Below are positions 8,201 to 29,510 of a stretch of 64,000 bases of DNA, one piece after another. The position numbers were made by a program, and so were the translations under genes. Location: contig CAWBMP010000005.1 of NCBI GenBank assembly GCA_963790025.1, positions 192,001 through 256,000 on the forward strand. Reading direction: 5' to 3'. The notes below the pieces were generated by a model that saw only the letters and a program-made list of their open reading frames with translations, did not search any database and was not told the DNA's origin. Numbering within the stretch: the first letter of the stretch is position 1; the number at the start of each line of letters is the position of its first letter. The stretch comes from Nitrospirota bacterium (GTDB lineage: Bacteria > Nitrospirota > Thermodesulfovibrionia > Thermodesulfovibrionales > Dissulfurispiraceae).

Positions 8201-10990
8201 CTCGTACAGGCCCACGCATACTGGCGCCTCAAGGGACTGGTGGTGGACCTTGTGATCTGGAACGAAGATCACGCCGGTTACCGGCAGCTTTTGCAAGATC
8301 AGATCATGGGACTAATTGCCGCAGGCGTCGAAGCGACCGTGACAGAACGACCGGGCGGCATCTTTGTGAGACCTGCAGACCAGATATCGGGTGAGGACCG
8401 TATCCTGTTCCAAACGGTCAGTCGCGCTGTCATTACCGACAGCCTTGGCCCGCTTGATGACCAGATCGACCGTCGCAGCATTGCGCCGTTGATAGTGCCG
8501 CGACTTGTGCCGACCCGGAGCCGCCGCGCGGAAATATCGACTGGATCGGCAATGCCTCGCACCGATCTTCTGTTCTTTAACGGCCATGGAGGATTCACCC
8601 CCGATGGCCGCGAGTATATAATAACTACGGCGCACGGACAGGTGACACCGGCGCCGTGGGTAAATGTGATTGCCAACCCATACTTCGGGACAGTGATTTC
8701 CGAAAGCGGAGGTGCTTACACCTGGAGCGAGAATGCCCATGAGTTCCGTCTCACCCCTTGGCAAAACGACCCGGTAAGCGATTCCGGCGGAGAAGCTTTT
8801 TACCTTCGAGATGAAGAGAGCGGTCTTTTCTGGTCCCCTTCGCCGCTGCCGTGCCGGGGGGCGGCGCATTACGTCACCCGCCACGGATTCGGCTATAGTG
8901 TCTTCGAACATACTGAGGACGGGATCAGGTCAGAGATGTGGGTCTACGTGGCAATGGATGCACCGGTCAAGTTAACGGTATTGAAGGTGAGAAACGAATC
9001 GGGCCGGTCCCACCGACTCTCAGCCACCGGGTACGTGGAATGGGTGCTTGGAGATTTGCGGACGAATACAGCGATGCATGTGAGCACCGAAATTGACCCC
9101 AAGACCGGAGCTCTTTTCGGGCGAAACCCATACAACACGGAGTTCGCCGACCGGACCGCGTTCTTCGACGTGGATGACGGGACCCGGACCGTGAGCGGCG
9201 ACCGGACAGACTTCCTTGGACGTAACGGCACACTTCGGAGCCCGGAGGCGATGACCCGCACGCGGCTTTCAGGCAGGGTGGGGGCTGCCTTGGACCCCTG
9301 TGCCGCTATACAGGTTCCCTTCGATTTGGCCGATGGGCAAGAGCGTGAGATTGTTTTTAGGCTTGGCGTAGGGAGAGACTCATCTGACACCGGCCAACTG
9401 GTACGCCGCTTCCGGGGGTCTGCAGTGGCGCGCGATGTTCTCGAAACAGTATGGCAGTACTGGAACCACACCCTCGGCGCAGTGCAGGTGGAAACACCGG
9501 ACCAGTCCGTCAATGTGCTGGCCAATGGCTGGCTTTTATACCAAACTCTGGCATGTCGTCTTTGGGCCCGGAACGGATACTACCAGCCCGGCGGAGCCTT
9601 CGGCTTCCGCGACCAGTTGCAGGACGTGATGGCGCTTATACACTCTGAACCGCGGCTTGTGCGCGAACACCTGCTCCTCTGCGCGGCCCATCAGTTCACA
9701 GAGGGAGATGTCCAGCATTGGTGGCATCCCCCATCAGGGCGCGGCGTGCGTACACATTGTTCGGACGACTTTCTCTGGTTGCCGCTGGCTGCGTGCCGCT
9801 ACGTTCTGAATACCGGAGACACGGGCGTGTTGGATGAAACTGTCCGCTTCATCACGGGTCGCCCGGTAAACATGGACGAGGACTCGTATTACGATCTTCC
9901 CCACTCGTCCGAAGAAACAGCAAGTTTGTACGATCACTGTGTGCGGGCCATTCTAAGAGGCCTCACCCGTGGCGAACACGGTTTGCCGCTCATCGGCTCG
10001 GGTGATTGGAACGACGGAATGAACATGGTGGGCGAACACGGTAAGGGTGAAAGCGTCTGGCTGGGCTTCTTCCTCCATAAAGTGCTTGTAGAATTCTGTG
10101 AGGTTGCGCGTCTGCACGGCGATCTGTCCTTCGTCAAACGTTGTCTGGAGGAAGCCGCTCAACTGCGCAGGAATATCGAAGAAAATGGCTGGGATGGCGA
10201 GTGGTATCTGCGCGCTTTCTTTGACGACGGTTCTTCACTGGGTTCGGCAAGCAATCCCGAATGTCGGCTTGATTCCATAGCGCAAAGTTGGTCTGTTCTC
10301 TCAGGCGCCGGGGATGCCGGACGCTCAACAATGGCAATGGAAGCTGTGGACAGGCTTCTCGTTCGAAGGGAACATGGCCTGGTCCAACTCCTGGACCCGC
10401 CGTTCGACAAATCGGACCTGAATCCCGGCTATATAAAGGGATACGTCCCTGGTGTAAGGGAGAATGGAGGGCAATACACGCACGCGGCGGTTTGGGCGGC
10501 GATGGCATTCGCTGCGTTAGGCGATTGCAGTCGCGCGTGGGAACTGCTGGCAATGATCAACCCTGTAAACCATGCGAGATCTCAGGGGGAAATCACAAAG
10601 TACAAAGTAGAACCGTATGTTGTCGCTGCCGATGTATATGCGGTCTCTCCGCATACCGGACGCGGTGGATGGACATGGTACACGGGATCGGCAGGCTGGA
10701 TGTACACGCTTATCCTTGAATCACTTCTCGGATTGAGGCTTGAAGGAGACAAACTGTGTTTCGCGCCGTGTCTGCCCGGGGATTGGGAGTCGTTCAAGGT
10801 ACATTACCGGTACAGGGAAACTGTCTACCACATCACCGTACGCAAATCTTGCGACGGCAGCGTGGCGAGTGTCACCGTTGATGGCGTTGAGCAACGTGCT
10901 AATGCTATTCCACTTCTTGACGACCATGCGGAGCATTCGGTCGAGGTGAGAATACCCGCCCTGGGGCAAAGAGGAGAGAATGAAACTTAA
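2225..10990 (+). CDS. ndvB: cyclic beta-1,2-glucan synthase (GT84 synthase, TM segments, C-terminal GH94 phosphorylase); true start may be 2297-2303
   Basis: About 2.9k aa; WLLDNFYLIEEQI, WMGYERKRGKL, ILSHDLIEG, RRHRWIRGDWQ, TSPTNMGL, GAFGFRDQLQD, GDWNDGMN, GRGGWTWYTGSAGW; RBS AAGGAG at 2282. Confidence 0.93.
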   Translation: MPYQSEESPSNKRLFVFRKKETSNLKMPNKTILGSLPYLRASLRETDLAQKCAVCEPPLRSELFSSDQMEQHGKTLAGLHKLSPGYPPDQLLTRLADNEGILTGTRRLLMEAVTTDRRITPAGDWLLDNFYLIEEQIRMARRHLPKGYSRELPRLKGGLSAGLPRVYDIALETISHSDGRIDPGSLSRFVAAYQTVTVLKLGELWAIPIMLRLALIENLRRVGARIAADRLDRNQADYWADRISEIAGKDPKSLILVIADMARSEPLLKSAFVAEFARRLQGQGPALAMPLTWIEQRLSESSLTIDHLVQSENQQQAADQVSMSNSIGSLRFLGTMDWREFVETMSEVEQTLREDSGGTYAAMDFSTRDRYRHVVEKIAKSGRLSEGEVAAAAVRLAQGNMADKNGTRGRDDRDTHVGYYLIDKGLPQLEELANVRSSVSGFLRKVSSRFPLPLYLGAIMLMTVIVTGGLLTKAHSDGLHNSLIVITGILSLLCTSQLAVAVVNWLATLLTIPQQLPRMDFSKGIPPESRTLTIVPTMLTSAEGIEDLIEALEVRFLANRDENLHFGLLTDFQDAAEETLPEDVPLLLLLRQRIEALNEKYENAKGDTFFLFHRPRRWNARERVWMGYERKRGKLSALNALLRPTENGGTHDLSDNRFSLVVGNTAVLLNVKYVITIDTDTQLPRDSARQLVGAMAHPLNRAHYDEGEQRVVAGYGILQPRVAVSLPGTNRSRYARMYGSDPGIDPYTRAVSDVYQDIFLEGSFIGKGIYDVDAFERALGGRLPENRILSHDLIEGCYARSGLLSDVMVYEEYPCRYSADVSRRHRWIRGDWQLVRWLLPFIPGHGPGPDGQRRKNPLSPLSRWKLFDNLRRSLVPSALTLLLLLGWTVLSSPWFWTLSVIGIIFIPFLISSVLDLLKKPDGVLFGQHLTAVGHSTVRRFVQVVFTLACLPYEAFFSLDAIERTAWRMLITHKRLLEWNPSGGPDRNYSRMGGLAGVCRTMWSAPFLAVSAIVYLALSNPAALTAAAPILLFWFASPFIAWRVSLPLARSEARLRPDQIVFLQKLSRKTWAFFETLVGPEEHWLPPDNYQEHPAAVVAHRTSPTNMGLALLANLSAHDFGYISMLQLVERTTNALSTMEALERYRGHFYNWYDTRSLKPLPPKYVSTVDSGNLAAHLLTLRQGLLTLPDQALLGPRVFIGLRDTLWVLLDSAAGTRYEGDITASFAQLQNELESACNVQPTALPAVRLHLDQLAKLAEEALSGIDSLGVGPENLPENLIVWWARALAGQCRAALDELTLLAASTVRDIDEMPTLRELANTGSDVAAERITAIEKLVLQSGELSRMQYDFLFDRASHLLSIGYNVDGRRLDTSYYDLLASEARLCSFVAIAQGQLPQESWFALGRLLTNVGGEPILVSWSGSMFEYLMPLLVMPTYERTLLDETCRASVARQIEYGRKRGVPWGISESGYNTIDAQLNYQYRAFGVPGLGLKRGLADDLVIAPYASALALMVMPEEACVNLQRLAEEGYEGKFGFYEAIDYTPSRLPLRQSSAVVRSFMAHHVGMSFLSLTYLLLDRPMQKRFESDPLFQATTLLLQERVPSATGFYSQTADLSESHAVPTGAKTSVRSFSSPDTPFPQVHLLSNGRYHVMITNAGGGYSRWKDIAVTRWREDSTRDNWGAFCYIREVASGEFWSAAFQPTLKHSKNYEAIFSEGRAEFRRRDHDFDTHTEIAVSPEDDIELRRIKITNRGRTRREIEITSYAEVVLASPAADILHPAFSNLFVRTEIIDHRKAILCTRRPRSLDEHSPWMFNLMAVHGAETGEVSYETDRLRFIGRGNTVADPQAMTGSAALSGAEGSMLDPIVAIRYRVTLDPEESATINVVTGIGESRDICMGLVEKYQDRYLSDRVFELAWTHSQVLLRQINATEADAQLYGRLACAVIYANSSLRADPGVIIRNRRGQSGLWGYSISGDLPIVLLQIADPANIGLVGQLVQAHAYWRLKGLVVDLVIWNEDHAGYRQLLQDQIMGLIAAGVEATVTERPGGIFVRPADQISGEDRILFQTVSRAVITDSLGPLDDQIDRRSIAPLIVPRLVPTRSRRAEISTGSAMPRTDLLFFNGHGGFTPDGREYIITTAHGQVTPAPWVNVIANPYFGTVISESGGAYTWSENAHEFRLTPWQNDPVSDSGGEAFYLRDEESGLFWSPSPLPCRGAAHYVTRHGFGYSVFEHTEDGIRSEMWVYVAMDAPVKLTVLKVRNESGRSHRLSATGYVEWVLGDLRTNTAMHVSTEIDPKTGALFGRNPYNTEFADRTAFFDVDDGTRTVSGDRTDFLGRNGTLRSPEAMTRTRLSGRVGAALDPCAAIQVPFDLADGQEREIVFRLGVGRDSSDTGQLVRRFRGSAVARDVLETVWQYWNHTLGAVQVETPDQSVNVLANGWLLYQTLACRLWARNGYYQPGGAFGFRDQLQDVMALIHSEPRLVREHLLLCAAHQFTEGDVQHWWHPPSGRGVRTHCSDDFLWLPLAACRYVLNTGDTGVLDETVRFITGRPVNMDEDSYYDLPHSSEETASLYDHCVRAILRGLTRGEHGLPLIGSGDWNDGMNMVGEHGKGESVWLGFFLHKVLVEFCEVARLHGDLSFVKRCLEEAAQLRRNIEENGWDGEWYLRAFFDDGSSLGSASNPECRLDSIAQSWSVLSGAGDAGRSTMAMEAVDRLLVRREHGLVQLLDPPFDKSDLNPGYIKGYVPGVRENGGQYTHAAVWAAMAFAALGDCSRAWELLAMINPVNHARSQGEITKYKVEPYVVAADVYAVSPHTGRGGWTWYTGSAGWMYTLILESLLGLRLEGDKLCFAPCLPGDWESFKVHYRYRETVYHITVRKSCDGSVASVTVDGVEQRANAIPLLDDHAEHSVEVRIPALGQRGENET

Positions 10991-12461: not shown

Positions 12462-12506
12462 TGGTGCCCTCTACAAGATTCGAACTTGCGGCCCCAGGTT
12501 TAGGAA
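12462..12506 (-). repeat. displaced 3' half of tRNA-Arg(CCT) (att junction)
   Basis: 43/45 identical to 28458-28502; homology stops in the anticodon loop. Confidence 0.9.
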
Positions 12507-12984
12507 GTCAAAATAGCACATTTTTGCAGATGGGCGTCTGGTAAGGGTTTGGGCATAACTTATTAAATTGCAAGGCGGTTTTGGGTTGACGTATTTTCCA
12601 TGTATTACCATATTTTCTGTCCTTTCAGTGGCATTCTGCTACAATTTTGCTACAGTTAGCTATTATAGCGCGTTTTAGCCTTGAGAGCGTGATTTAAACA
12701 ATTTTTATAACTGGGCCTTCTACCTACGAAATTGGCCTTTTAGCTTAACTTTCAAAGAGTTTGAACGTTATATCCTTTACGGTATTTTCTATCCTTTCAT
12801 GTGCTTTAGGATATTTTTGGTTACATTTTGGCTACAGTCAGACTCTTATTCGAGGCCGGATATCTCACAGAACCCAACGCTCCGGCGCGGCTCGATAATT
12901 ATCAAGGTTTCAAACGATAACTGTTGCTGCGATACGGCTTTCAACTCGCATACTGTGAAATCAGGGCAGTCCTAGCCATAAGTC

Positions 12985-13488
12985 TTAGTCGCTCGTCAAG
13001 TCATGTCCCGGCCAGAGCGCGGTGAGGGCAAGGGCCACCGCAATTCTCAGCGAGACCTCGACGAAGCGGTGAACTGCGATGAGCTGTGGCGCTTTTCCTC
13101 GCACGACGAGCATGACAATTGTGAGCGTGATGCCTGCGAATCTATAGGCACTCTGGTCAAGGCGTAAAATGGCGCAGATCAGCCCGAGCACAAAGATCGC
13201 CGCACCGAATACAATAATCCCCGGATCAAAATAGCTCACCATTAGCCCTCCCAGCGCAGCACCCAGTGCTGTGCCGATAAAGCGCTGCTTCGAAACTGGC
13301 CATGCGGCCCCTAGCGTTGACTGCATTACAGTGAGCGTCGCAATCGCCGCCCAGTACGACTCCGGCATGGTCAATAACTGCGCTATGGTTAAAGACGCTG
13401 TCGCTCCAACGGCTGTGCGGGCCGAGTGCAGCAGCCAGCCGTTTTTCCATAACAAGGAAAACCAATTCGTTGGATTTAGCCTCGCCAT
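12985..13488 (-). CDS. short FUSC-family (aromatic acid exporter-like) membrane protein
   Basis: PESYWAAIATLTVMQS, RFIGTALGA and HRFVEVSL motifs; RBS AAGGAG before ATG 13488. Confidence 0.75.
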   Translation of the reverse strand: MARLNPTNWFSLLWKNGWLLHSARTAVGATASLTIAQLLTMPESYWAAIATLTVMQSTLGAAWPVSKQRFIGTALGAALGGLMVSYFDPGIIVFGAAIFVLGLICAILRLDQSAYRFAGITLTIVMLVVRGKAPQLIAVHRFVEVSLRIAVALALTALWPGHDLTSD

Positions 13489-13815
13489 ACATTCTCCTTT
13501 GAACAGCCCAGTTACTTTCATTAGAACTCATACTATGGAGAATTATAGCAGGATTTGAAAATGCGGACTAATCATAAAAAGGGTCTCTTGTTACCTGTGA
13601 GATGAAACCTAGAATCAACGGGCATTGCACCTTAACTATGAATTATCGGTTTCCGAATAAAGATATTACTCATTCGAGATTCGATGGCCACTCTTTTTAA
13701 CGTTTTAAAAAAACATTCAGGAATTCCGACGCGACTTGCTCACAGAAGTCGAAAGTGCGCCGGACTTTACGAAATGTGACAGTTTTTAGCGGAAATCGAG
13801 GCTATCGGACAGCTG

Positions 13816-14442
13816 TCAGCGTGTTCTCGCGTCCGCTGGAGCGGCTTGTTCGGCGGAACCATGTCCTACTGGAGCCTGCAAAAGCTGTAGCCTTGTTGCC
13901 CGTTGCAGGAACTCGCTGGTAAGCCGCTCCAAGAAGACTGAGCACTTCCAATTTAGCTCCTCAACCTGCTTCCTGGCGGCAGGACAAACTTCAGACGATG
14001 TTTTCGCATCTTGCACGGCACGATGTACCGAGACGAACTTGTAGTGAAGACTCTTGGGGTGGTCCCCGGCATTATCGTCGCGATAATCAAGGAAGAGGTT
14101 GGCCTGATTTTCATTGACCAACAGGCGGATTTTGTTTCGATTGCGCCAGAAGCTTGAATTCCACTCAACTACTGATATGAAATACTGCTTTTCGCACTTG
14201 AGCACCTTCTCCTCGTGACCTTCCTCAATTGCCTGCAGATATCTCTGAAGCAGAAAGAAGCGCTTTCCGATTTGTCCTGAGAGTGCGTCAAGGAACGCAA
14301 CTCCCTCGTCATACCGCGCCTTATAGAGCGAATGTTCCGTCTAGAATTTCCAGGAACGCTTCTTGAGAAAGAAACCCAAGACACCGCCAAGTACTGTGGT
14401 GAGAAAAAAACCGAGAATCAACAGTAATGTTTTTTCAGCCAT
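13816..14442 (-). pseudogene. cassette-like hypothetical membrane-anchored protein interrupted by one in-frame TAG (14341-14343)
   Basis: ATG 14442 with upstream GAGG/GGAG gives MAEKTLLLILGFFLTTVLGG...KF*TEHSLY..., in frame with ORF 13816-14205. Confidence 0.6.
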
Positions 14443-14672: not shown

Positions 14673-15260
14673 TTACTTATTCATATTCAATAGGTCCTTA
14701 ATTCTTCCTTCCAGAAAACTCGGTTCTGGAAAAAGAGCCGTTGAATATAGCCAGTCCTTGCGTTTCCCAACTTGCAGAAGACCCGCCGTTGGCTTGTATT
14801 CTCTAGCATGGACGACGTCAATAGATTCTATAGGCTGCACCCATTGAACGATTCTACCGGATGTCCTTGTTCTCTCGTCGTCCAAAACACAAAAGAGACT
14901 TCGTGTGCTCGCAACCAACCAAGTGCGCTGTTTTGCAGTAGAGAAAATCAAAACCTGTCCCACAAAGGTCTCACCATTAGAAAGAAGTCCCAGCGAGCTA
15001 ATGACGTTCCTGATACCTTCTTCAGTCAAGAAGCCGCCGGGACCTATGATTTCAAGTTCCTTCTTGACTTCATTTGGAGCATCAATGGGTTCAGAAGCAG
15101 GCCGCTGAAACTCGGCCTCGGTGTCACCAATCTTAAGTTTAGCCAATCTCTCTATCAGACTGGAGATCTGGTTTCTAAACAGGTAAAGTCCAATGAGAAC
15201 CACCGATGGCCACAAAAGAGCCTTTATGAGATCAAGCCAGAGTTCGAGAGGTGATTTCAT
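14673..15260 (-). CDS. hypothetical protein with N-terminal TM helix and beta-rich C-terminal domain
   Basis: 195-aa ORF; RBS AAGGGG; WPSVVLIGLYLFR TM segment. Confidence 0.75.
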   Translation of the reverse strand: MKSPLELWLDLIKALLWPSVVLIGLYLFRNQISSLIERLAKLKIGDTEAEFQRPASEPIDAPNEVKKELEIIGPGGFLTEEGIRNVISSLGLLSNGETFVGQVLIFSTAKQRTWLVASTRSLFCVLDDERTRTSGRIVQWVQPIESIDVVHAREYKPTAGLLQVGKRKDWLYSTALFPEPSFLEGRIKDLLNMNK

Positions 15261-15380: not shown

Positions 15381-18300
15381 TCATTTCTTCCTCGTGCGTC
15401 TCCGCCGCACCGGAGAACCTCCCTGCATAATAGAGCGATTATCTATCTCATTTAAAGCATCGCTAACTCCATATGCTTCAATATCCAATAATGTCTCAAA
15501 CAATTCCAATCCCTGTAATCTGTGTGTGCCGCCCAGTCTCTGCAATGTCAGCGCTATGTTAATAATTTCAGGAGCAGCAATCGCAAAAGAAGTACTCAAA
15601 TTGTTGAGTTCCGATCTTTTTTGCTCAATCAATATTTTGGAAATATCGTATATACGGTCGGGTTCTAAAGGTAATAAATCTCGAAGACGCTCAACGATAA
15701 AGGTATCAGGAGCATACTGAAAAGATCTTGGATGTTGTATTAAACAATCTAGAAACTTTCTTGTAAGGTCGTCAGGAACTATATGGTCTATGATACGAAA
15801 AATATCCATTATTGCTCTATCAATTTTATCGTCATTATCTTTAATTAGTTCGCATAACATACCTGTTGCGATCTTCTTGTAAGTCAATTCAGACCACAAA
15901 CGGGACACAGTATAAGCAAGTCCTAAGCGCATATGTTGAACTTTAACTTGGTCTTGATCTGGATAATCCCTCTGCATTATTCTATGAATTTCGTAGCCAA
16001 CATCCTCATTTTCAGGGTGCCAAGCATAGTAGAGCATCGATATTTCAGCATAAGCCTGAGGGCCTTTAACCCACTCGCCGTCGCGCAACGAAAATAACCA
16101 TTTCATAAAAACATCAGTGGGAATCCAAGCTTGAATCTGTGTAAGCAAAATAGCCCCTTGATTACTGCTAATCAATCGAGGATAGCTACTAAACAGATTC
16201 TCTAAGAAAGTGATTGCCCTAGAATGCTCACAATTGGAAAGATACTGCAAGAAGTGAAGCATAGCATGCCATACTTCCACGGCATCGTTGCGAGAGAGGT
16301 GTGACTCTAAAACTTCTATCCACCGATCTGCAGCTATTGGTTTTCGGAAGAGTAATGCTTTAGTGAGTGCCTCCAGTATAGTAAAGCTACCTTGAGGCAC
16401 AACAAAAAAGCTCTGATGTCCCCACAAGATACTCCGATCTACTTTCTCTTCTTTCTCTTCTTTCTCTTCTTTCGTGTGATTAGTTGAACTGTACTTATGT
16501 GGCTCTACTGCTTGAGTTAACCATTCATTCAATATGTTGCAAATATAATCAGGCAAGCCAATACTGTCTTTAACTCTTACCGATAAGGCATGGGCGGCGG
16601 CGGCGCGGAATTCAAGCGTCTTAAATCCCCGCTTATTTAATTCGACAACTAAAGTAAATAGTTCTTTGTCAGGTAGTTCTGAAATGGACAATCCCTCAAG
16701 TGCCATCCCCGTGGGTCTCTCTTGTAAACCCGGTTTGAAGTGACCTAATATAGGGATAGCTCTCTGAGGGTGCGATTTAGCAAAGTCCGAAAAAGCTCTC
16801 GATGCTTGTATGCTCCCGCCTAGTGAAAGGTCCTTCGGATGATCCCAATTCGTGCTATCTACAAACTTTTCGAATAGCTTTACAATGTCTTCATCTTTAG
16901 CCTTTGCCATTTGCTCCGCAGACATCGGGCTTTCAATCGTATGAAATCCAGTAAAAACTATTTCCTTTTCTGACAATTTGGGGAACGCTCTTTCTTCCTC
17001 CTCAACAAGGCGCTTTGTTTTGTCGCTCATCAGGTCTCTTGGAATGGCGTGTAAGACTTTCAGTCGACGCTGTCGATTATACTTAAATGTATCAGCCCGC
17101 CTCTGACCACTGTCACCCTCTTCATTAGGGAAACAGTCCCATTTGAGGATTGCATCTTCTAGCTTTGAGAGGTCCTGCTGAGAAAGAAGGGGGGCCAGTT
17201 TTGAAATCAAACGTTTACTATCTTTGTGCTGATCATCATAGCTACCTAAAGCAAATCTTCTTCCGTCAGACATGATAAACTTGAAAACAACTTGAGGAAA
17301 GTTTTCAATTAATTTTTCTAATCCCTTTGACAAGAGTCTTTGGACAAGAGATATATTAGATTTCTCCCATTTGTTCAAGAAGCTTATGAAAGCAACCGCA
17401 TCGGTTTGAGCAAATGTTTCAATAGCAATTTTGAAGGAAGTCATAAACGGATATCTATCAGGTTCTCCATCCTTCAAGTCCTCAGATAAGATTGAAATGT
17501 GATGGTAAGTGCCCTTGACCGACGAATCACCGAAATCTCTTTCAAGCATCTCTACAAGCCATGGCCAAACAACATCAAGATAGACTTTTGGGGCTGCTTC
17601 TGCTATAGCCGGAAGATTGTACCACTCGTCAAAGCTATCTAAAGCCTTCTGATGTTTTATCCCGGGCAAACTTTGCTCAGAACTAGCTATGCTTTGTGCC
17701 AATCCATATCGTACAACAATCGGCGCTAGTTCAGGAGACGCAGCTGAAATTATACTTGCCAGGTCGCAAACTGCCCAGGAAGCAAATTTGGTTCTATGTA
17801 AAATAGTGCAAATTACTTCTATTGCTTTAGCATCCCATTGGGATAACTCCTGAAACGTCGCCCATGTTAACGGGTCCTTTTCCTTATCACGTAGCCAATA
17901 GCGCTCAATTAGCTTAAATACGCCATCGCTGTCAAATCGCCATGCCTTTTGAAGGATGAATATGGCATGCTTTGCACGTTCTGTTTCTTCAGACATTATT
18001 TGAGGAAGATAAGTGTTCTTTACTCGCTCGAACCATCCGGGGCTCCCTGACATAAAATAAAGAACCTTGCGTCTAAACTCAGGCTTTTCCAAAAGTGGGA
18101 GTAGTTTTCCCGCCTCATAATCGTCAGGTTTCTGTAGTTGGCTCAAGAATTCTATTAGTAATAGCCTAATGTGTAATCGGAGACTTTCGTCTGTCCAAAG
18201 ACGATCAAGCTCCTTTTTGTATGTCACTTCGTGTGCAACACGCAAATAATGTAGGCCACTCCATAGTTGCGGTCTCACAAATAATGCGCTCTGTCTCGCC

Positions 18301-20402
18301 ACAACATAATTTGATAAACTCTCAATCTCTTTCGCAAATGCCCTTGCTCTGGCAAAGTCGAAGATGGTTTGATGACTAAAAGCTATTCTTATTCCAGAGT
18401 TATCGGATATCAGTATTCCTTCAGAGATAAGGTTCTCAAGGCTCTTCATATGGGCATCAAAAGCCGATATGGGCAACCAGAGTGTTTCTTCTTCCCCCAT
18501 TTTTGAAGCTATCCGTTCAACCAACTCTGCTCGGCCTTCAATTCCATCAGGATTTAAAAGTTTGATCTTCCATAATTCTTCAAGTAGAGCATGATACGTG
18601 AGAAGATCTTTAGTTACTGCAAAAGAGGGGGCAATCTTCAAAAATATTTTGATATGGAGCGGTGTCTTGAGTAGCTCCTTAAAATTAGGATTCCAAGAGG
18701 ATGAATCAATTCCCATGTCTTTCAATACTTGTGCCACGTCATCCCATTGAGGGAGTTCAAGTGTCACAGTATCGGCCTTAATGCTTCTCAGGCGGGCATC
18801 ATGGTTATATTCAAATGTCCTGCAAGAGGACAAAACATGAACGTTTGGTTTATCCGAAAGTCGCTTTATGAAATCAAGCATTATATTTAGGCGTTCAGTT
18901 CTTAGATCCACCAAGTCACCGAGAGCATCTAGCTGGTCCAATAAAACAACCACCTTCTCATGTCTGGATAATCTCTCTACGCACGCTACAAGATTATCGG
19001 GCAAGCCTAAATCTTTTGATAGCTGCTCCAATGAATTCACAGATACATTGAGAAGATCCGCTTTTATGGCAAGGACAGTAATTCCTTTGTCTTCGAGAGT
19101 CTTGCCTAATTTGGCCAACAATGACGACTTTCCACTTCCTGGAGCACCCAATAATATAATTGTATTGCTGTCCTGAGTTTCAAATGCTGTCATTAGCCGC
19201 CTTATTTCAGGCCTATCTATCCAACGATCAACTCCTACAGTAACATGCCAAGATAACAGGTCAATGGATGTTCTCTTAAGTGCAGCCCTTATCTCGTCTA
19301 AAGAGATGTATTCTGATTCCAAATGAACAAATGTGATTGGAAACTCTTTCAATAGCGTGAGCTTATTGGAATCAAACAAAGACTTGATACGCTCGAATCC
19401 ATTCAGTGAACTTTGCGCGAAGATGACAAGACTACCTTTCTCGATGCGATAAATACTTAAAGATGAATCCCCCGACAACTCCCTAAGGTTCGCTTCCATC
19501 TGTAGCAGTAAAGTCTTATCAGGCATTTCTGAGGTCGTTTCGACACCTAAAACAAATCTAAGGGTATCTCTCTCGTCACGCGTCTCCACTCCTGCATGTA
19601 AACTTAAAGATGCTTCGCTGACAACAAGCTTGGCTAACATCTCAAAGGCAAAGGCACTAGCATGAAGTGCGGCGGTCTCATGATATCCATCACCTTTTTC
19701 GTCAACCAGATCCGAGATGCCACGTATAATTATCGTTTCTTTACCACTGCGGTGTGCGGCATCATGCACACCGAACCCTTCCATATCAACAGCAAGGGCA
19801 TCACCATAATTCTGCTTTATGAAAACATATACTTCAGATTTTGAGTCCGCTATTACCTTCTCTCCCGAAGCTATAGCTCCAACAAGAGCTCTTGGATTTC
19901 GTTCAGGTAGTTTAGAGATTCTCTTTAACCAATCCTCTTTTCTTGCCGCTGCACGAGCTCTTTGTTCCAGTCTATAAGCGGCTCTATAGGCACTGGGACG
20001 TGGTCTTAACTCCTTCTCAGCCTTGCCGAACTCATAGCCATATACCTTTGTTGCAGCGATCACATCTGCGATTTCAACGTCCTTTATCCCTCCTGCAATG
20101 CCAACAAAGAATACGAATCTGGGGTTAAAATAATCGATTGCGCGTTCTGTTTCTAAAGCTGCGGTTTCATTACCAGGCCCTGTTTCAATAACGGCAACAT
20201 TCCAAAATTGACCATCAGAGCGAAAAATACCACACTCATACACAGCGCCTTTGGGATGGACCCTTTCCAGTAAATCAGTGAGATGACTAGTGACAGCTGT
20301 AAATTCGATGGGAAGAGCAGTAACGATTACAACCCATGGAAGATCGTTAATATTATGAGGATTTACGTTGGTTTGCTGCATTGACAGAGGATCCATATTC
20401 AT
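15381..20402 (-). CDS. PNP/MTA-SAH nucleosidase-like effector, TRADD-N-like linker, STAND NTPase and long helical sensor region (Avs-like defence protein candidate)
   Basis: VTALPIE, FVGIAGG, GAIASGEKVI, VDMEG and IRGISD (PNP_UDP fold); Walker A GAPGSGKS; Walker B VLLDQLD; winged-helix FSHQTIFDF. Confidence 0.85.
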   Translation of the reverse strand: MNMDPLSMQQTNVNPHNINDLPWVVIVTALPIEFTAVTSHLTDLLERVHPKGAVYECGIFRSDGQFWNVAVIETGPGNETAALETERAIDYFNPRFVFFVGIAGGIKDVEIADVIAATKVYGYEFGKAEKELRPRPSAYRAAYRLEQRARAAARKEDWLKRISKLPERNPRALVGAIASGEKVIADSKSEVYVFIKQNYGDALAVDMEGFGVHDAAHRSGKETIIIRGISDLVDEKGDGYHETAALHASAFAFEMLAKLVVSEASLSLHAGVETRDERDTLRFVLGVETTSEMPDKTLLLQMEANLRELSGDSSLSIYRIEKGSLVIFAQSSLNGFERIKSLFDSNKLTLLKEFPITFVHLESEYISLDEIRAALKRTSIDLLSWHVTVGVDRWIDRPEIRRLMTAFETQDSNTIILLGAPGSGKSSLLAKLGKTLEDKGITVLAIKADLLNVSVNSLEQLSKDLGLPDNLVACVERLSRHEKVVVLLDQLDALGDLVDLRTERLNIMLDFIKRLSDKPNVHVLSSCRTFEYNHDARLRSIKADTVTLELPQWDDVAQVLKDMGIDSSSWNPNFKELLKTPLHIKIFLKIAPSFAVTKDLLTYHALLEELWKIKLLNPDGIEGRAELVERIASKMGEEETLWLPISAFDAHMKSLENLISEGILISDNSGIRIAFSHQTIFDFARARAFAKEIESLSNYVVARQSALFVRPQLWSGLHYLRVAHEVTYKKELDRLWTDESLRLHIRLLLIEFLSQLQKPDDYEAGKLLPLLEKPEFRRKVLYFMSGSPGWFERVKNTYLPQIMSEETERAKHAIFILQKAWRFDSDGVFKLIERYWLRDKEKDPLTWATFQELSQWDAKAIEVICTILHRTKFASWAVCDLASIISAASPELAPIVVRYGLAQSIASSEQSLPGIKHQKALDSFDEWYNLPAIAEAAPKVYLDVVWPWLVEMLERDFGDSSVKGTYHHISILSEDLKDGEPDRYPFMTSFKIAIETFAQTDAVAFISFLNKWEKSNISLVQRLLSKGLEKLIENFPQVVFKFIMSDGRRFALGSYDDQHKDSKRLISKLAPLLSQQDLSKLEDAILKWDCFPNEEGDSGQRRADTFKYNRQRRLKVLHAIPRDLMSDKTKRLVEEEERAFPKLSEKEIVFTGFHTIESPMSAEQMAKAKDEDIVKLFEKFVDSTNWDHPKDLSLGGSIQASRAFSDFAKSHPQRAIPILGHFKPGLQERPTGMALEGLSISELPDKELFTLVVELNKRGFKTLEFRAAAAHALSVRVKDSIGLPDYICNILNEWLTQAVEPHKYSSTNHTKEEKEEKEEKVDRSILWGHQSFFVVPQGSFTILEALTKALLFRKPIAADRWIEVLESHLSRNDAVEVWHAMLHFLQYLSNCEHSRAITFLENLFSSYPRLISSNQGAILLTQIQAWIPTDVFMKWLFSLRDGEWVKGPQAYAEISMLYYAWHPENEDVGYEIHRIMQRDYPDQDQVKVQHMRLGLAYTVSRLWSELTYKKIATGMLCELIKDNDDKIDRAIMDIFRIIDHIVPDDLTRKFLDCLIQHPRSFQYAPDTFIVERLRDLLPLEPDRIYDISKILIEQKRSELNNLSTSFAIAAPEIINIALTLQRLGGTHRLQGLELFETLLDIEAYGVSDALNEIDNRSIMQGGSPVRRRRTRKK

Positions 20403-21110: not shown

Positions 21111-21554
21111 ATGGGTAAAACAAAATGGCAAATGTTAATGATGCTTCTGGTTATTGTATTGATCAGCGGATGTTCAACTATGAGTGACGTTGCGGTTTCC
21201 AAAGATTCAGGAACGAGTGCTGTTTATCCTGTGTCAGCCGACCAGGCTTGGGATATTGCAAAGGCTGTTTTTCGTTGGGAAGGTGCAGATGCTATAGAAG
21301 AACATCAGAAAGATGGTTATATGCTCACAAGCAGTGGAATGAACATGGTTTCGTGGGGTGCTGTAATGGGAGCATGGATAGATCCCATTGATAAGGACAA
21401 AACAAAAGTGACTGTCGTTACAAAACGTAGACTCTCTATGAATGTTGCAACTACACTAACAGAAGCCACATTTCAGAAGCGATTTGTGCAGGCGGTTGAC
21501 ATTGTGAAAGCCGGGAAACCCTTACCCATAAAAGCTCCTGAATTAAATGAATAG
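21111..21554 (+). CDS. hypothetical lipoprotein
   Basis: Signal peptide with lipobox ISG-C; RBS AGGGGG. Confidence 0.8.
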   Translation: MGKTKWQMLMMLLVIVLISGCSTMSDVAVSKDSGTSAVYPVSADQAWDIAKAVFRWEGADAIEEHQKDGYMLTSSGMNMVSWGAVMGAWIDPIDKDKTKVTVVTKRRLSMNVATTLTEATFQKRFVQAVDIVKAGKPLPIKAPELNE

Positions 21555-22127: not shown

Positions 22128-22547
22128 ATGAGGAAGATGAGTTTTGTTATGTTAATAACTCTCTTATGCGTTTCTCTGGCATCCTGTTCTAAGGCTGAAA
22201 AGCTGACGGACGTCAAAGTTCAGATTGATTCCCCTCAACAGAATGCAGAAGTTGTTCTTCAAGAAATCGTAAAAGGCAAAGTATCAAATCCAAAAGCCAC
22301 GGTCTACGTATTAGTTCATCCTTTATTGACACATATATGGTGGGTCCAGCGTATGCCCTCTCCGCCTAATCAAGATGGCACTTGGCAGACGGTTTGCTAT
22401 TTTGGGACTGAGAATAAAGGGGTCGGTGAATCATTTGAAGTCGTAGCTATCGTAACAAATAAGAAACTGGAAGAAGGACAAACTCTTACTGAATTGCCAA
22501 AAGAATCAGTGCGAACTGATATAACAACCGTCAGGCGAATAAAGTAA
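22128..22547 (+). CDS. hypothetical lipoprotein with beta-sandwich-like domain
   Basis: RBS AAGGAGG; lipobox LAS-C. Confidence 0.8.
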   Translation: MRKMSFVMLITLLCVSLASCSKAEKLTDVKVQIDSPQQNAEVVLQEIVKGKVSNPKATVYVLVHPLLTHIWWVQRMPSPPNQDGTWQTVCYFGTENKGVGESFEVVAIVTNKKLEEGQTLTELPKESVRTDITTVRRIK

Positions 22548-22578: not shown

Positions 22579-23235
22579 ATGAGGAAACTTATCGGAGCAG
22601 TTTCTGTTGCTCAGGCATTTCTATCATATTTCGTAGGCCGATTTTTAGACAGGCTTATTGCTGGACCTTCAAGGGAAATTGTGCAGCCCAATATGGTGAT
22701 TGTGGTTGACCGGCCTGGAAAAGAGTGGGATATTATTGTCTACTATCTTGTTGTGGCGATCGCTGTATTGGTTCTTTCGTGGTATTTCCAGATAAAGGCA
22801 ATTAAAGGAACCGGTCAGTCAGAAACAGGTGTTAAGGCTACTTGTTTTCGAGTGCTGATTGGCCTGCTAATCTTCATTGTAATTACTGCTTTGGCCCTTT
22901 CACTGAGCAAAAGATTCTTGGTTGCTGAAGTATCAAGCATAATGGATGTCAGCGGTCACCTGAGTGATCGGAGGCTCAAGGGATATTTGTTTGTCAGACC
23001 AGTTAATTCTCAGCATTGCTGGCTCCAGGAGCCTATTCCCCTTATGCCTGATCAGGGCGGCAAGTGGAACGCAAGCGTATTTTTTGGTGGACCAAGTGGT
23101 CAGCAATTTGAAATCATTGCAATAGCCTCGGAGACACCCCTGCATCCACTTCCCTTCAGCGCCCCTGGAAGCTACGACTGTAGGCAAATCACGAGTGATG
23201 CAGGCCGGTTTGTTCGGTTAGTAAGGTTGAAATAA
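22579..23235 (+). CDS. hypothetical membrane protein; C-terminal domain paralogous to 22128-22547
   Basis: RBS GGGAG; 2-3 TM segments; shared Y..V.P....W.Q...G.W....FG...FE..AI pattern. Confidence 0.75.
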   Translation: MRKLIGAVSVAQAFLSYFVGRFLDRLIAGPSREIVQPNMVIVVDRPGKEWDIIVYYLVVAIAVLVLSWYFQIKAIKGTGQSETGVKATCFRVLIGLLIFIVITALALSLSKRFLVAEVSSIMDVSGHLSDRRLKGYLFVRPVNSQHCWLQEPIPLMPDQGGKWNASVFFGGPSGQQFEIIAIASETPLHPLPFSAPGSYDCRQITSDAGRFVRLVRLK

Positions 23236-23560: not shown

Positions 23561-23670
23561 TCGGCAAATAAACCGGCAAAATAGTTTCGCTTAATTTCCT
23601 CTATCTTGATAATTTTATCAATTTTATATATAGTTACCATATAAAATAAGCGGCAAATAAATCGGCAAAT
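23561..23670 (+). promoter_or_regulatory. four CGGCAAA boxes in two 12-bp-spaced pairs upstream of fic
   Basis: Copies near 23562, 23574, 23651 and 23663. Confidence 0.5.
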
Positions 23671-23686
23671 GATAGGTCAGGTAACT

Positions 23687-24898
23687 ATGCAAACTCAGAA
23701 AATGACACCTTTATATCCCGAAAAAGCGGAGGAGCTTACTGATCTTGCTCTGGCTGTAATCCAAAAATCAGCAGCCCTTGGTAGCCGGCAACATCCAGTT
23801 ACTCTACATTCACTGCATGAATTCCTTCGGGTCATTAACAGCTATTATTCTAATTTAATAGAGGGTCATAACATGCATCCTTATGATATTGTGCGTGCGA
23901 TGCAAAAACAGTACGATACAGAACCGGCAAAACGTGATCTCCAGATGGAGAGCGTTGCTCATATTACCGTTCAAAGGGATATGGAAGGAAGATTGCAGCA
24001 AGAGCCTGAACTCAATATTGCTGGCCGAGAATTCCTCTGTTATGTGCACAGGGAATTCTATCGACAACTGCCGGATACGTTCAGAATCGTGAAAAATCCA
24101 GAGACGAGGCGTAAGAGCCGTGTCATTCCTGGTGAGTTGCGTAAGGAGACAGTTAAAGTAGGGCGCCATGTGCCGCCAGGAAGCGATACCCTGGATGCAT
24201 ATCTTGATCTGTTTGGTAGGTCTTACGCACCTGACCGTCATCATGGTGCGGCAAAGCTGGTTGCAGCTGCCGCCGCACATCATCGTCTCATGTGGATTCA
24301 CCCTTTCCTTGACGGAAACGGACGCGTGGCCCGGTTATTCACTGAGGCATATTTTCGACGCATTCCGGTTCTCGGCTACAGCCTCTGGTCAGTAAGCCGA
24401 GGGCTTGCGCGCAGAAATGTTGATTATAAGGCGGCCCTTAGCTGGGCGGACGCGGCACGGCGAAATGACCTTGACGGCAGGGGAACCCTATCGAATGAAG
24501 GACTGTTACGGTTTTGTCGGTTTTTTCTTGAAGTCTGCCTTGACCAGGTAGAATACATGGATAAACTTCTGAAGCTTGAAGAACTCGCGCAGAGAATCAG
24601 GTCCTATATTGACCTTCGGAACAGGGGGGTAATCCATAGCCCATCAGGGGAAAAAAAGTTGCTCCGGATCGAGTCGCTCAGAATGCTCCAGGAAGTCCTG
24701 ATACAAGGTGTTTTAACGAGGGGCGATGTTATTCAGGCCTCAGGCCTCAAGGAACGCACGGGACGAAATATACTGGGGCTGCTTCTTGAAGAGGGCTTGC
24801 TGGTTTCGGATTCTCCCAAGGGAGAGGTCAGGCTGGGATTTCCCATCCATGCAGCTGGATGGTTCTTCCCGGATCTGTATCCGACTTTAACAAATTAG
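23687..24898 (+). CDS. Fic family protein with C-terminal wHTH
   Basis: Canonical HPFLDGNGRVAR and inhibitory-type SNLIEG motif. Confidence 0.92.
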   Translation: MQTQKMTPLYPEKAEELTDLALAVIQKSAALGSRQHPVTLHSLHEFLRVINSYYSNLIEGHNMHPYDIVRAMQKQYDTEPAKRDLQMESVAHITVQRDMEGRLQQEPELNIAGREFLCYVHREFYRQLPDTFRIVKNPETRRKSRVIPGELRKETVKVGRHVPPGSDTLDAYLDLFGRSYAPDRHHGAAKLVAAAAAHHRLMWIHPFLDGNGRVARLFTEAYFRRIPVLGYSLWSVSRGLARRNVDYKAALSWADAARRNDLDGRGTLSNEGLLRFCRFFLEVCLDQVEYMDKLLKLEELAQRIRSYIDLRNRGVIHSPSGEKKLLRIESLRMLQEVLIQGVLTRGDVIQASGLKERTGRNILGLLLEEGLLVSDSPKGEVRLGFPIHAAGWFFPDLYPTLTN

Positions 24899-25176: not shown

Positions 25177-25224
25177 TGGTGCCCCCTGCAAGATTCGAAC
25201 TTGCGGCCCCAGGTTTAAGAAACC
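25177..25224 (-). repeat. displaced 3' half of tRNA-Arg(CCT) (att junction)
   Basis: 47/48 identical to 28458-28505. Confidence 0.92.
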
Positions 25225-25481
25225 ATTATGGCGCTCAAATCAACTCTTTGAAATATTCGTTTTTATTGCCAGAATGTTTAAAATAATCAAGGAGTTATAT
25301 TTTCAGATGAGTTCCTTTGAATTCCTATCAGTTCTTGTCAGTTCACATGAATTCATGAAATAATATTACAGTTATATGACAGTTCTTGGGAGTTTGTCTC
25401 TTGCTTTCCGCCCCTCCTATTGCGAATACAACATCAAAACGGTAAACTAAAACTACGGATATTGAAGTTGGAGGTGCTGGG

Positions 25482-28457: not shown

Positions 28458-28534
28458 TGGTGCCCCCTGCAAGATTCGAACTTGCGGCCCCAGGTTTAGG
28501 AAACCTGTGCTCTATCCTACTGAGCTAAGGGGGC
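28458..28534 (-). tRNA. tRNA-Arg(CCT)
   Basis: 77 nt; acceptor GCCCCCT/AGGGGGC; anticodon arm CAGGT-TTCCTAA-ACCTG; GTTCGAATC T-loop; encoded CCA. Confidence 0.97.
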
Positions 28535-28612: not shown

Positions 28613-28741
28613 TTAGAAGACCTGTGCTCTTTCCGCCTGAGCTAAGGGTTGAACCTTAAAAATCAACAACTTGCAACCTGCTGCATTTTATTTTGCCATA
28701 GACCGTCACTAATTCGTCACAAAAAAACCTGTGCTCTATCC
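28613..28741 (-). repeat. two degenerate copies of the tRNA-Arg 5' half, interleaved with IHF and arm-like repeats
   Basis: ACCTGTGCTCTTTCCGCCTGAGCTAAGGG (28620-28648) and AAACCTGTGCTCTATCC (28725-28741) compared with 28501-28531. Confidence 0.8.
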
Positions 28742-28857
28742 GAATGTAAATATGCCTGCAACAAAAAGCAATTGCCAAACTAATAGTGCCTTATGTAATA
28801 TCTTTACCGGTGCAGAACAGCATCTTTACATGCTAAAATAGCGCAGGAGGTTTTACT

Positions 28858-29130
28858 ATGGCGACTACGTTGAAGATGGACAAAGGTGACGCATTGATTG
28901 TGAAGGAGAGTCTTGAGCTTGACAGGAATATCATGAAACTTAGCCTTCTGGAATACAGTAAGAAACTGAAGGACTTTGAAAAAAAGCACAAGATGACCAC
29001 CAAAGCGTTCTTGCAGAAATTCAACTCCGGCACATTGGGAGACGATGGCGAATGGTTTGATTGGCTCTTCGCATCTAAAGCTTGTGAACATGTCAAAGAC
29101 AGGTTGCATAGAATAGCTGCAATAGTCTGA
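28858..29130 (+). CDS. putative antitoxin partner of the DUF6516 protein
   Basis: RBS AGGAGG; L..FEKK..MTT..F...F.SG.LGDD..WF.W pattern; coupled to the next gene. Confidence 0.7.
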   Translation: MATTLKMDKGDALIVKESLELDRNIMKLSLLEYSKKLKDFEKKHKMTTKAFLQKFNSGTLGDDGEWFDWLFASKACEHVKDRLHRIAAIV

Positions 29131-29510
29131 TGATACAGTCTTACTTCAACAGGGTCCGCAACAAGCTCAAAGAAATTTCTCCCCTTATACAAGCCGACAC
29201 TTCAAGCTTTGAGATGGTCTCCGCCGACATGGGCATGCTGAGAGGCAGGATATCCTTTATAGACGGTTCTGTGCTGGATTTCAGAGAGTTGTTGTCAACA
29301 AACGAACACGATTACCGATTCCATTGGATGGATGTCTCGAATAAACTGTTAGTCCGCTGGGACACTGCGCCCCATTATAAAAAATTCGAAAACTTCCCGT
29401 ACCACAGACATCTATCAAGAGGCGTTTCCAGTTCTGAAGAAATGGATTTTATAGCCGTGCTGGACTATATAAAACAGGAAATTGTTTTTAAACGCCTCGG
29501 ACATAAGTAA
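29130..29510 (+). CDS. DUF6516 / TumE-like toxin
   Basis: F.DGS.L...E...Y.FHW......RWD.APH......PYH.H pattern. Confidence 0.75.
   Translation: MIQSYFNRVRNKLKEISPLIQADTSSFEMVSADMGMLRGRISFIDGSVLDFRELLSTNEHDYRFHWMDVSNKLLVRWDTAPHYKKFENFPYHRHLSRGVSSSEEMDFIAVLDYIKQEIVFKRLGHK

Follow-up and report, generated by a model that had tools for sequence, protein, structure and literature searches.

A predicted Avs-type receptor gene with a nucleosidase effector and a TRADD-N-like insert on a putative tRNA-Arg island of a Nitrospirota bacterium

Overview of the receptor gene

We analysed a stretch of 64,000 nucleotides from a Nitrospirota bacterium (GenBank assembly GCA_963790025.1, contig CAWBMP010000005.1, positions 192,001 to 256,000; hereafter the window) and found one large gene, predicted to encode an immune receptor. 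Its product is composed of four modules in order: a PNP_UDP-fold nucleosidase, an insert of 82 residues, a STAND NTPase and an all-helical sensor of about 950 residues (Table 1). By analogy with characterised systems, the protein is probably an Avs-type, NLR-like single-gene receptor located on a tRNA-Arg island, with an ATP nucleosidase as effector and a TRADD-N-like element that would act in cis. That it is an Avs-type defence receptor is very likely. The open reading frame (ORF) has a second possible start at Met8, which is also the start of the database copy P0002 (1666 aa).

The first-pass annotation of this DNA, made from the letters and their translated ORFs, had already outlined these parts. 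It placed a PNP_UDP-fold N-terminus at about 19630-20340, where we found PF01048 at residues 24-243 (nt 19674-20333, E 1.1e-24), and a Walker A motif at 19126-19150, where GAPGSGKS lies at nt 19125-19148. Its insert coordinates (19320-19565) were exact to the base and the peptide it quoted occurs verbatim in the translation. The helical C-terminus of about 950 aa was confirmed by a confident model, in which residues 721-1673 are all-helical with a predicted local distance difference test score (pLDDT) of 90.3. Its guess that the insert is TRADD-N-like was borne out by profile evidence, fold and a Gly-Ser motif, and its assignment of the NTPase to the STAND/Avs kind agrees with SeAvs7 being the closest solved relative.

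Effector domain

The N-terminal domain matched the PADLOC model of the CBASS 'PN-superfamily' effector (E 2.9e-21, 73.5 bits) over profile positions 238-497 of 506, the stretch equivalent to the Cap17 PNP domain (given as residues 239-505 in the accessible text of Rousset et al. 2023, bioRxiv 10.1101/2023.01.24.525353). According to the same text, Cap17 and DtcC cleave ATP and dATP into adenine and sugar triphosphate, and the Cap17-type PNP clade is found at the N-terminus of diverse Avs proteins.

A sequence search of solved structures (E<=0.01) matched 33 MTA/SAH-type nucleosidases through the N-terminus. The AMExE, VEME and ISD motifs conserved in solved MTA/SAH nucleosidases have aligned counterparts here in Glu33, Met207-Glu208 and Ser230-Asp231, which from what is known of MtnN we take to be the catalytic residues. 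In alignment A2 (64 rows) the residues of these five columns are kept in 43-46 rows (Glu 44, Met 43, Glu 46, Ser 46 and Asp 46), and the remaining rows are mostly relatives without a PNP domain. The best NCBIfam matches of the effector are MTA/SAH nucleosidase models, with the cut-offs of the housekeeping MtnN equivalogs missed (NF004079, 74 vs 169 bits; TIGR01704, 42 vs 73.8). By analogy with Cap17 and DtcC, ATP and dATP would be the substrate of this effector, an assignment that we somewhat favour.

STAND NTPase

Searching solved sequences with phmmer, we found apo SeAvs7 (9n00_A) at E 4.8e-31, with residues 371-829 aligned on chain residues 239-696; of the 34 solved sequences that reached E<=0.01, it was the sole STAND protein. 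PDB 9N00 is apo SeAvs7, the Avs7 of Salmonella (accessible text of Lee et al., Nature 2026, PMC13581612). Family profiles built from 64 and 103 sequences matched the same chain at E 2.1e-43 and 7.4e-41, respectively, and the 103-sequence profile also matched another P-loop ATPase, ClpB, at E 0.0037. Pfam matches to nSTAND1, nSTAND3, nSTAND5 and NACHT had E-values between 4e-5 and 1e-3, and none reached the cut-off of its family. The NTPase-sensor border at residues 720/721 is a working cut and not a mapped domain edge.

All 64 relatives share six residues without exception, Lys425, Asp489, Gln490, Asp492, Arg528 and His677, and among them are the features of the STAND superfamily: the Walker A lysine, the Walker B aspartate, the arginine after strand 4 and the histidine of the winged helix. 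In an alignment counted by hand, Asp489, Arg528 and His677 fall on SeAvs7 Asp358, Arg395 and His545, which Lee et al. (2026, PMC13581612, accessible text) describe as ATP/ADP contacts. Judged by its NTPase match, the protein appears to be Avs7-like.

The PADLOC candidate PDC-M54 was also considered as the family of this receptor and was rejected. The model PDC-M54A (1621-1657 positions) matches the NTPase alone, residues 395-720 on profile positions 303-654, and its matches are likewise limited to the NTPase in five relatives. A literature search found no paper on PDC-M54.

TRADD-N-like insert

The region of the insert was modelled with AlphaFold2 (AF2) from residues 258-400 in an alignment with 69 relatives, giving a pLDDT of 82 overall and 85-97 across the domain. 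The topology is beta1-alpha1-beta2-[Gly323-Ser324]-beta3-alpha2-beta4, a four-stranded, RRM-like two-layer sandwich with strands at residues 280-287, 316-321, 325-332 and 355-361 and helices at 296-310 and 333-344. The Gly-Ser pair is kept in 68 of 70 sequences of alignment A1 and in 26 of 27 sequences of alignment A4. In the accessible text of Kaur et al. (2021), TRADD-N is defined by an RRM-like four-stranded sandwich with a small residue followed by serine ('uS', usually Gly-Ser) in the beta2-beta3 turn, and the Gly-Ser of TRADD is a contact to TRAF2 in the TRADD complex. The same source places the bacterial domain between a variable N-terminal effector, PNPase included, and a C-terminal STAND/repeat module. 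Here, too, the insert sits between a variable effector and the NTPase and sensor, and in some relatives HNH, SIR2 or alpha/beta-hydrolase domains replace PNP upstream of a kept insert.

The window's insert scored 15.6 bits against PF20694 (TRADD-like_N) within the whole protein, and 21.5 bits (E 2.1e-4) when taken alone. PF20694 was matched at E<=0.1 by nine of 27 inserts, every other family being matched by at most one, and by five of 28 full-length relatives at the same threshold. One of these relatives, P0009, exceeded the cut-off with 32.4 bits, and its insert matched that of the window by BLAST at E 5e-13 in a small custom database.

We then built a profile from the insert alone (27 sequences, 91 positions) and searched it against 1.84 billion representative proteins, obtaining 484 proteins at E<=1e-3, of which 40 reached E<=1e-10. 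For the Pfam scan, 150 of the 484 were listed, of which 144 were new, 129 were shorter than 1000 aa and 127 were scanned, two falling out because of a limit on size. PF20694 was found at E<=1e-4 in 83 of the 127, with 80 of these at or above the cut-off, and it overlapped the insert-profile match in all four proteins checked (P0123, P0139, P0153 and P0161). The 44 proteins without PF20694 were mostly pieces of the same STAND family or short fragments. The architectures retrieved by the insert profile were PNP-TRADD-N, PNP-TRADD-N-ECF sigma, TIR-TRADD-N, CHAT-TRADD-N, TRADD-N-pentapeptide and EAD1-TRADD-N-GUN4, which are those given in the accessible text of Kaur et al. (2021). At the level of sequence profiles, the insert therefore belongs to the TRADD-like_N domain family. 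The insert profile found no TRADD match among the PDB sequences, human TRADD included (best E 0.059, an unrelated protein), and a look-up of the insert in a protein atlas gave no usable match.

A PNP-TRADD-N unit of two domains without the STAND NTPase was observed in P0123, P0188, P0161 and P0244. These proteins stand alone (442-452 aa, possibly truncated) or are fused to an ECF sigma factor, and the PNP-TRADD-N pair may move as a cassette.

Presence of the insert across relatives

Counting the window's protein, the insert is present in 69 and absent in 27 of the 96 family members that bear PNP, and the distance from the PNP end to the NTPase falls in two classes of about 38-73 and about 120-190 residues. 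Because 69 of 96 PNP relatives carry the insert and its Gly-Ser is kept, we consider it a discrete module and no chance pattern. When the window and flanks of 8 kb at the 80 loci of relatives were searched with a hidden Markov model of the insert, no second copy came up apart from the pieces of the split gene L075.

An NTPase tree of 117 relatives was calculated with IQ-TREE (quick search, LG+G4), excluding three short rows. Five PNP proteins that lack the insert (1595-1597 aa) grouped with the window's protein (SH-aLRT branch support 99), and the group next to them includes the insert-bearing P0008-P0010. The closest relatives, of 50-52% identity, have no TRADD-N-like module, which they either lost or never gained. 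On this tree the presence of the insert needs at least six changes and the presence of PNP at least seven, and an HNH clade is nested within the proteins that carry both PNP and the insert.

Co-evolution of the insert with PNP was considered and set aside: the tree offers no more than four independent pairs with good support, and in most cases a change of effector leaves the insert as it was. The raw count has PNP in 23 of 26 insert-bearing rows.

Effector swapping and the helical sensor

With one genome scanned for each species, at least 195 relatives were confirmed among 599 candidate stretches, with the best match (52%) on a Candidatus Brocadia contig, and 80 loci were kept. These loci and the window gave 83 NTPase-bearing ORF rows, two split genes being counted twice. 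A PNP N-terminus was found in 23 rows with the insert and 11 without it, and another N-terminus in 3 rows with the insert and 46 without. Of 48 N-termini first classed as non-PNP, we scanned 42 against Pfam; the six excluded were four truncated N-termini and the second halves of two split genes. They comprised nine TIR, four DUF4062, three Mrr, three alpha/beta-hydrolase and two HNH domains, one each of GT4, SEFIR, EAD10, NNH2 and HSDR_N, and 16 with no Pfam family. A SIR2 N-terminus (P0067) and a SeAvs7-like N-terminus (P0308) also occur in the family. One body of NTPase and sensor is thus found under many alternative N-terminal effectors, and such effector swapping on one body is a hallmark of Avs-type receptors; for Avs7 itself, 20 or more kinds of N-terminal effector domain are described (Lee et al. 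2026, PMC13581612, accessible text). None of the seven ORFs neighbouring the receptor gene recurs beside its relatives in the 80 loci, so the receptor is regarded as a single-gene system.

The DUF4062 N-termini on the same NTPase and sensor belong to loci L019, L025, L048 and L069. DUF4062 was renamed the NADase 'NIR' in a 2026 preprint, as far as its accessible text goes.

The sensor was modelled with AF2 over residues 690-1673, giving a pLDDT of 90.3, a predicted template-modelling score of 0.77 and 58 helices. It is conserved over its full length in 103 relatives, and its best-conserved motif is also the only stretch that aligns with the sensor of SeAvs7, on chain residues 982-1089. This weak match is colinear, profile positions 979-1085 lying on chain residues 983-1088 (1531-position profile, 1523-residue chain). 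In three further relatives searched singly, the NTPase of SeAvs7 was matched and its sensor never. One of the three, P0308 (1533 aa), aligns with SeAvs7 over residues 1-660, nuclease domain included, and shares 33% identity with the window's protein across 99% of the sensor; it is a protein that bridges SeAvs7 and the window's sensor type. The Avs7 sensor is described as a bilobed, sharply bent TPR-like domain that is homologous in SeAvs7 and Dsr1 (Lee et al. 2026, PMC13581612, accessible text). PADLOC gave no Dsr1 match to the window's protein, and SeAvs7 was not among the 50 Foldseek matches listed for the sensor model, from a library with entries up to 8 April 2026, in which 9N00 may be missing.

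Among the sensor matches listed, 103 of 106 new relatives carry the NTPase and the other three begin at the sensor edge; no NTPase-less sensor fusion was seen among the 120 sensor relatives listed. A tblastn search of NTPase plus sensor against plasmids gave 17 records, none of them an enterobacterial Avs7 bridge. The stretch 16438-16473 consists of three tandem copies of a 9-nt unit; it encodes KEEKEEKEEK (residues 1311-1320) in a low-confidence loop of the sensor, and its length could change through slippage.

Genomic island

The 3' half of tRNA-Arg(CCT) occurs in three direct copies, with 79-86% identity to the reference copy, which appear to mark two islands inserted in tandem at one tRNA. 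The 12.7-kb island contains the receptor gene and a SoFic-like Fic gene, and the 3.3-kb island contains ParE and AbiEi/AbiEii. The receptor gene is embedded in DNA with a G+C content of 0.41-0.46, vs 0.51-0.59 in the flanks. No integrase ORF was found in either island, and an Rfam scan returned the tRNA alone. The Fic-domain protein (23669-24898, plus strand, 409 aa) matched SoFic in PADLOC at E 1.4e-27 and is likely a second defence gene on the 12.7-kb island. The defence setting that had been proposed, a tRNA island beside Fic and toxin-antitoxin genes, is thus present, with the tRNA-Arg repeats, SoFic, ParE, AbiEi/AbiEii and TumE.

Table 1. Positions of the receptor gene, its domains and motifs, and the borders of the islands within the window
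Feature	Residues	Position (nt)	Strand	Evidence or remark
Whole receptor gene		15381..20402	minus	Intact ORF, 1673 codons + stop
PNP_UDP-fold nucleosidase effector	21-259	19626..20342	minus	Pfam, PADLOC, solved-nucleosidase alignments
TRADD-N-like module	280-361	19320..19565	minus	AF2 model, PF20694, profile search
Gly323-Ser324 'uS' motif, beta2-beta3 turn	323-324	19431..19436	minus	Alignments, AF2 model
Long helix, insert-to-NTPase joint	362-383	19254..19319	minus	Family-wide A-S-x-x-L-L-x-W motif
STAND NTPase (NOD)	396-720	18243..19217	minus	SeAvs7 match, weak Pfam matches
Walker A, GAPGSGKS	419-426	19125..19148	minus	Lys425 invariant
Walker B, LLDQLD		18927..18944	minus	Asp489, Gln490, Asp492 invariant
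Arg528	528	18819-18821	minus	Invariant
His677	677	18372-18374	minus	Invariant
Helical-repeat sensor with basic tail RRRRTRKK	721-1673	15384..18242	minus	AF2 model
Best-conserved sensor motif, SPMSAEQM ... WDHP ... GG-IQ-SR	~1157-1215	16758..16934	minus	
Left att-like copy of tRNA-Arg 3' half		12462..12517		Direct repeat; left border of 12.7-kb island
Middle att-like copy		25177..25232		Right border of 12.7-kb island, left border of 3.3-kb ParE/AbiE island
tRNA-Arg(CCT), integration target		28458..28534	minus	Third repeat copy 28458-28513

Several other features were observed in and around the islands. Five ORFs of 129-218 aa around the receptor gene (13816-14205, 14673-15260, 21111-21554, 22128-22547 and 22579-23235) had no Pfam, PADLOC or NCBIfam match, and none recurs near the receptor relatives. 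An ORF of 178 aa (12985-13521, minus strand) matches just positions 383-524 of the YccS/YhfK/FUSC transporters of about 700 residues and appears to be a gene fragment; its G+C content of 0.56 is unlike the rest of the island. Just outside the tRNA lies a homologue of the TumE toxin (29130-29510, plus strand; Pfam E 4.8e-20, PADLOC PDC-M44B E 5.9e-18), overlapping an unnamed ORF of 119 aa on the opposite strand (28833-29192, minus). Beyond the 5' end of the tRNA, degenerate copies of its middle part were found at 28613-28661 and 28725-28746, with spacings of 117 and 107 nt, which may be remnants of older tRNA copies or integration events. To the left of the island, a GH94-family protein of 2921 aa (cyclic beta-1,2-glucan synthase type) is encoded at 2225-10990 on the plus strand, with a G+C content of 0.55-0.59.

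Proposed mechanism and alternative explanations

By analogy with SeAvs7 and the other solved Avs proteins, the receptor would rest as an ADP-bound, auto-inhibited monomer, and its helical sensor would clamp a conserved phage protein made in infection. ADP would then be exchanged for ATP and the NTPase domains would oligomerise, gathering the N-terminal PNP domains, which would be switched on in the oligomer. By analogy with Cap17 and DtcC, the active effector would cut the N-glycosidic bond of ATP and dATP, and the supply of energy and deoxynucleotides would collapse, leaving the phage cycle incomplete, either through abortive infection or because growth is arrested. For the TRADD-N-like module a role in cis is most likely; lying between effector and NTPase, it would serve as a spacer or docking element and help to position or restrain the effector. 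Since the closest relatives lack it, the module would be dispensable for the basic design.

Several results weigh against this reading. The window's own insert stays below the Pfam gathering cut-off of 23.7 bits for PF20694. Foldseek, which had been proposed as a check on models of the segments, gave no match of the insert model to the PDB at E<=1e-3; its list was led by Pop5, RRM and S6 folds, with the TRADD-N structure 1f3v_A in 25th place (E 0.04, root-mean-square deviation 16). The check thus returned an RRM/ferredoxin-like fold for the insert and did not single out TRADD-N by fold alone, because these folds are generic; the TRADD-N assignment rests on profiles, since the structure search does not decide. 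For the sensor, Foldseek found only generic HEAT/ARM solenoids with template-modelling scores of about 0.2. The match of the sensor to SeAvs7 was below significance (10.8 bits, independent E-value 0.56, with the 64-sequence profile), and the wider 103-sequence profile brought no improvement (8.4 bits, independent E-value 3.6). PADLOC 2.0, another check proposed, recovered the CBASS effector and had no system model that covers the whole receptor protein. A promoter and terminator scan of the gene gave nothing above shuffled sequences. Our literature search found no bench study of the PNPase-TRADD-N-STAND subfamily, most subscription journals being outside the search.

Portal and terminase, which the first-pass annotation had suggested, are triggers of Avs1-4, and the nearest solved relative, Avs7, senses the phage major capsid protein, with EF-Tu as a co-factor in one clade (Lee et al. 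2026, PMC13581612, accessible text). If the sensor is of the Avs7 type, the major capsid protein would be the trigger, which we propose only tentatively. The same receptor design could instead carry a sensor of another type, for another phage protein (terminase, portal, tail or replication) or for a non-protein cue, and this has nearly an even chance. In its favour, pairwise searches align SeAvs7 through the NTPase and not the sensor, the sensor profile matches are below significance, and related STAND clades sense 14 different phage proteins (Lee et al. 2026, PMC13581612, accessible text). On the other side, the sensor matches, though weak, are colinear and involve hardly any net change in length, P0308 combines the N-terminus, NTPase and length of SeAvs7 with the window's sensor type, and the diversity of effectors fits the account of Avs7 in the accessible text of Lee et al. 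(2026). It is also conceivable, though unlikely, that the PNP domain spares ATP and cleaves another nucleotide or NAD-derived molecule, or makes a signalling product. Kaur et al. (2021) and Kibby et al. (2022) class the bacterial 'PNPase' effectors with NAD+/nucleotide-processing domains, and the score of the Cap17-type model (73.5 bits) is about that of the MtnN model (74 bits). Against such a substrate, Cap17 and DtcC were assayed directly as ATP/dATP nucleosidases, the N-terminal PNP domains of Avs proteins were placed in the Cap17 clade, and PNP domains associated with a fungal NLR-like protein and a sponge Death domain were cloned and were toxic (all in the accessible text of Rousset et al. 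2023); the active-site motifs of N-ribosyl hydrolases are also kept here.

A further question is whether the TRADD-N-like module works within the receptor or between proteins. As an adaptor in trans it would bring a second protein to the activated receptor, be it a host factor, a MATH-like partner or another protein with TRADD-N, like vertebrate TRADD-N with TRAF2. The Gly-Ser through which TRADD contacts TRAF2 in their complex (Kaur et al. 2021, accessible text) is nearly invariant here, the domain occurs in many architectures typical of adaptors (TIR, CHAT, ECF sigma, pentapeptide, EAD1), and SeAvs7 co-opts the host factor EF-Tu (Lee et al. 2026, PMC13581612, accessible text). The window and the flanks of the related loci, however, hold no second copy of the insert apart from the split L075, no neighbouring gene is conserved and the closest relatives do without the module, so that we consider the trans role improbable. 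Because the insert changes at least six times among 117 relatives, stays through effector swaps and keeps the TRAF2-contact Gly-Ser, we might also speculate that it is no passive linker and acts as a detachable coupling device, which turns NTPase oligomerisation into effector activation or recruits a host factor. Such a device could work by homotypic packing, by holding the effector in check or by host-factor recruitment as in SeAvs7 with EF-Tu; we regard it as a long shot. Finally, the gene might have no defence function and be a STAND-type regulator or a decaying passenger of the island with a housekeeping-like nucleosidase fold. The best NCBIfam matches are indeed MTA/SAH nucleosidase models, no full-length PADLOC model matches and the island holds at least one gene fragment, but the 5-kb ORF is intact with all its catalytic motifs, the housekeeping cut-offs are missed widely, known defence effectors, among them TIR, SIR2, HNH and Mrr, take the place of the nucleosidase in relatives, and the neighbours include SoFic, AbiE and ParE. 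This makes a non-defence role highly improbable, and an Avs-type receptor with the module acting in cis is the reading we prefer.

Significance

The gene adds no new kind of system: the architecture has been on record since 2021, the effector class was characterised in 2023 and a structure of the closest NTPase relative followed in 2026. The gene is of value as a test case for the PNPase-TRADD-N-STAND group. Bacterial TRADD-N domains are the presumed ancestors of an animal death-receptor signalling adaptor. The close insert-less relatives allow a clean comparison of receptors with and without the module. If the module were a coupling device, the window's gene and its 50%-identical insert-less relatives would be a natural matched pair and the first tractable test of the role of TRADD-N in a prokaryotic NLR-like receptor. 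The comparison would also show whether an Avs7-like body is able to drive an ATP-depleting effector as well as a nuclease.

Comparison with known systems

Avs1-5 and bNACHT proteins share with the window's protein the order of effector, NTPase and sensor, the single gene and the setting in a defence island. The Avs2 (1e-5) and Avs4 (3.8e-8) models gave weak matches, far below their cut-offs (31 vs 1500 bits for Avs4), and no solved Avs besides Avs7 was matched at E<=0.01. Cap17 of type III CBASS and DtcC of Detocs are, like the window's effector domain, PNP_UDP_1-fold effectors of a defence system; they are activated by a cyclic nucleotide (via TPALS) or by phosphotransfer, whereas the window's effector would presumably be activated by oligomerisation of the NTPase. 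Vertebrate TRADD (PDB 1F3V) resembles the insert in its RRM-like beta-alpha-beta-beta-alpha-beta sandwich and in the Gly-Ser of the beta2-beta3 turn. The insert differs from it in having no sequence match to human TRADD and a poor structural match to 1f3v_A, and no MATH-domain partner is known or was observed near the window's gene.

SeAvs7 (PDB 9N00, 9N01 and 9YIX) is like the window's protein in its NTPase, in the nucleotide-contact residues and in a length from NTPase to C-terminus that is about the same. Many swapped effectors are common to both families, and one motif of the sensors gave a colinear match that was below significance. It is unlike the window's protein in having a Cap4 nuclease as effector and no TRADD-N-like module.

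The first-pass annotation did not recognise the three-part architecture of nucleosidase, TRADD-N-like domain and STAND receptor among the described Avs types. It is not novel, because the Fig. 3 source data of Kaur et al. (2021) list the same parts and Rousset et al. (2023) have PNP on Avs proteins; fusions of bacterial NACHT proteins also include PNPase and TRADD-N (Kibby et al. 2022). The source data of Kaur et al. (2021), a wholly computational study with no trigger, activity or structure, contain eleven such proteins, mostly from single-gene loci and one of them, WP_095496078.1, from Mesorhizobium temperatum. They have the same module order (four or five modules) and 1417-1770 aa, vs 1673 in the window's protein. 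In our own scan, locus L032 of a Mesorhizobium temperatum genome had all four parts and was 32% identical to the window's protein. Relative to the group of Kaur et al. (2021), the window's protein is a divergent branch, whose nearest relatives are without TRADD-N.

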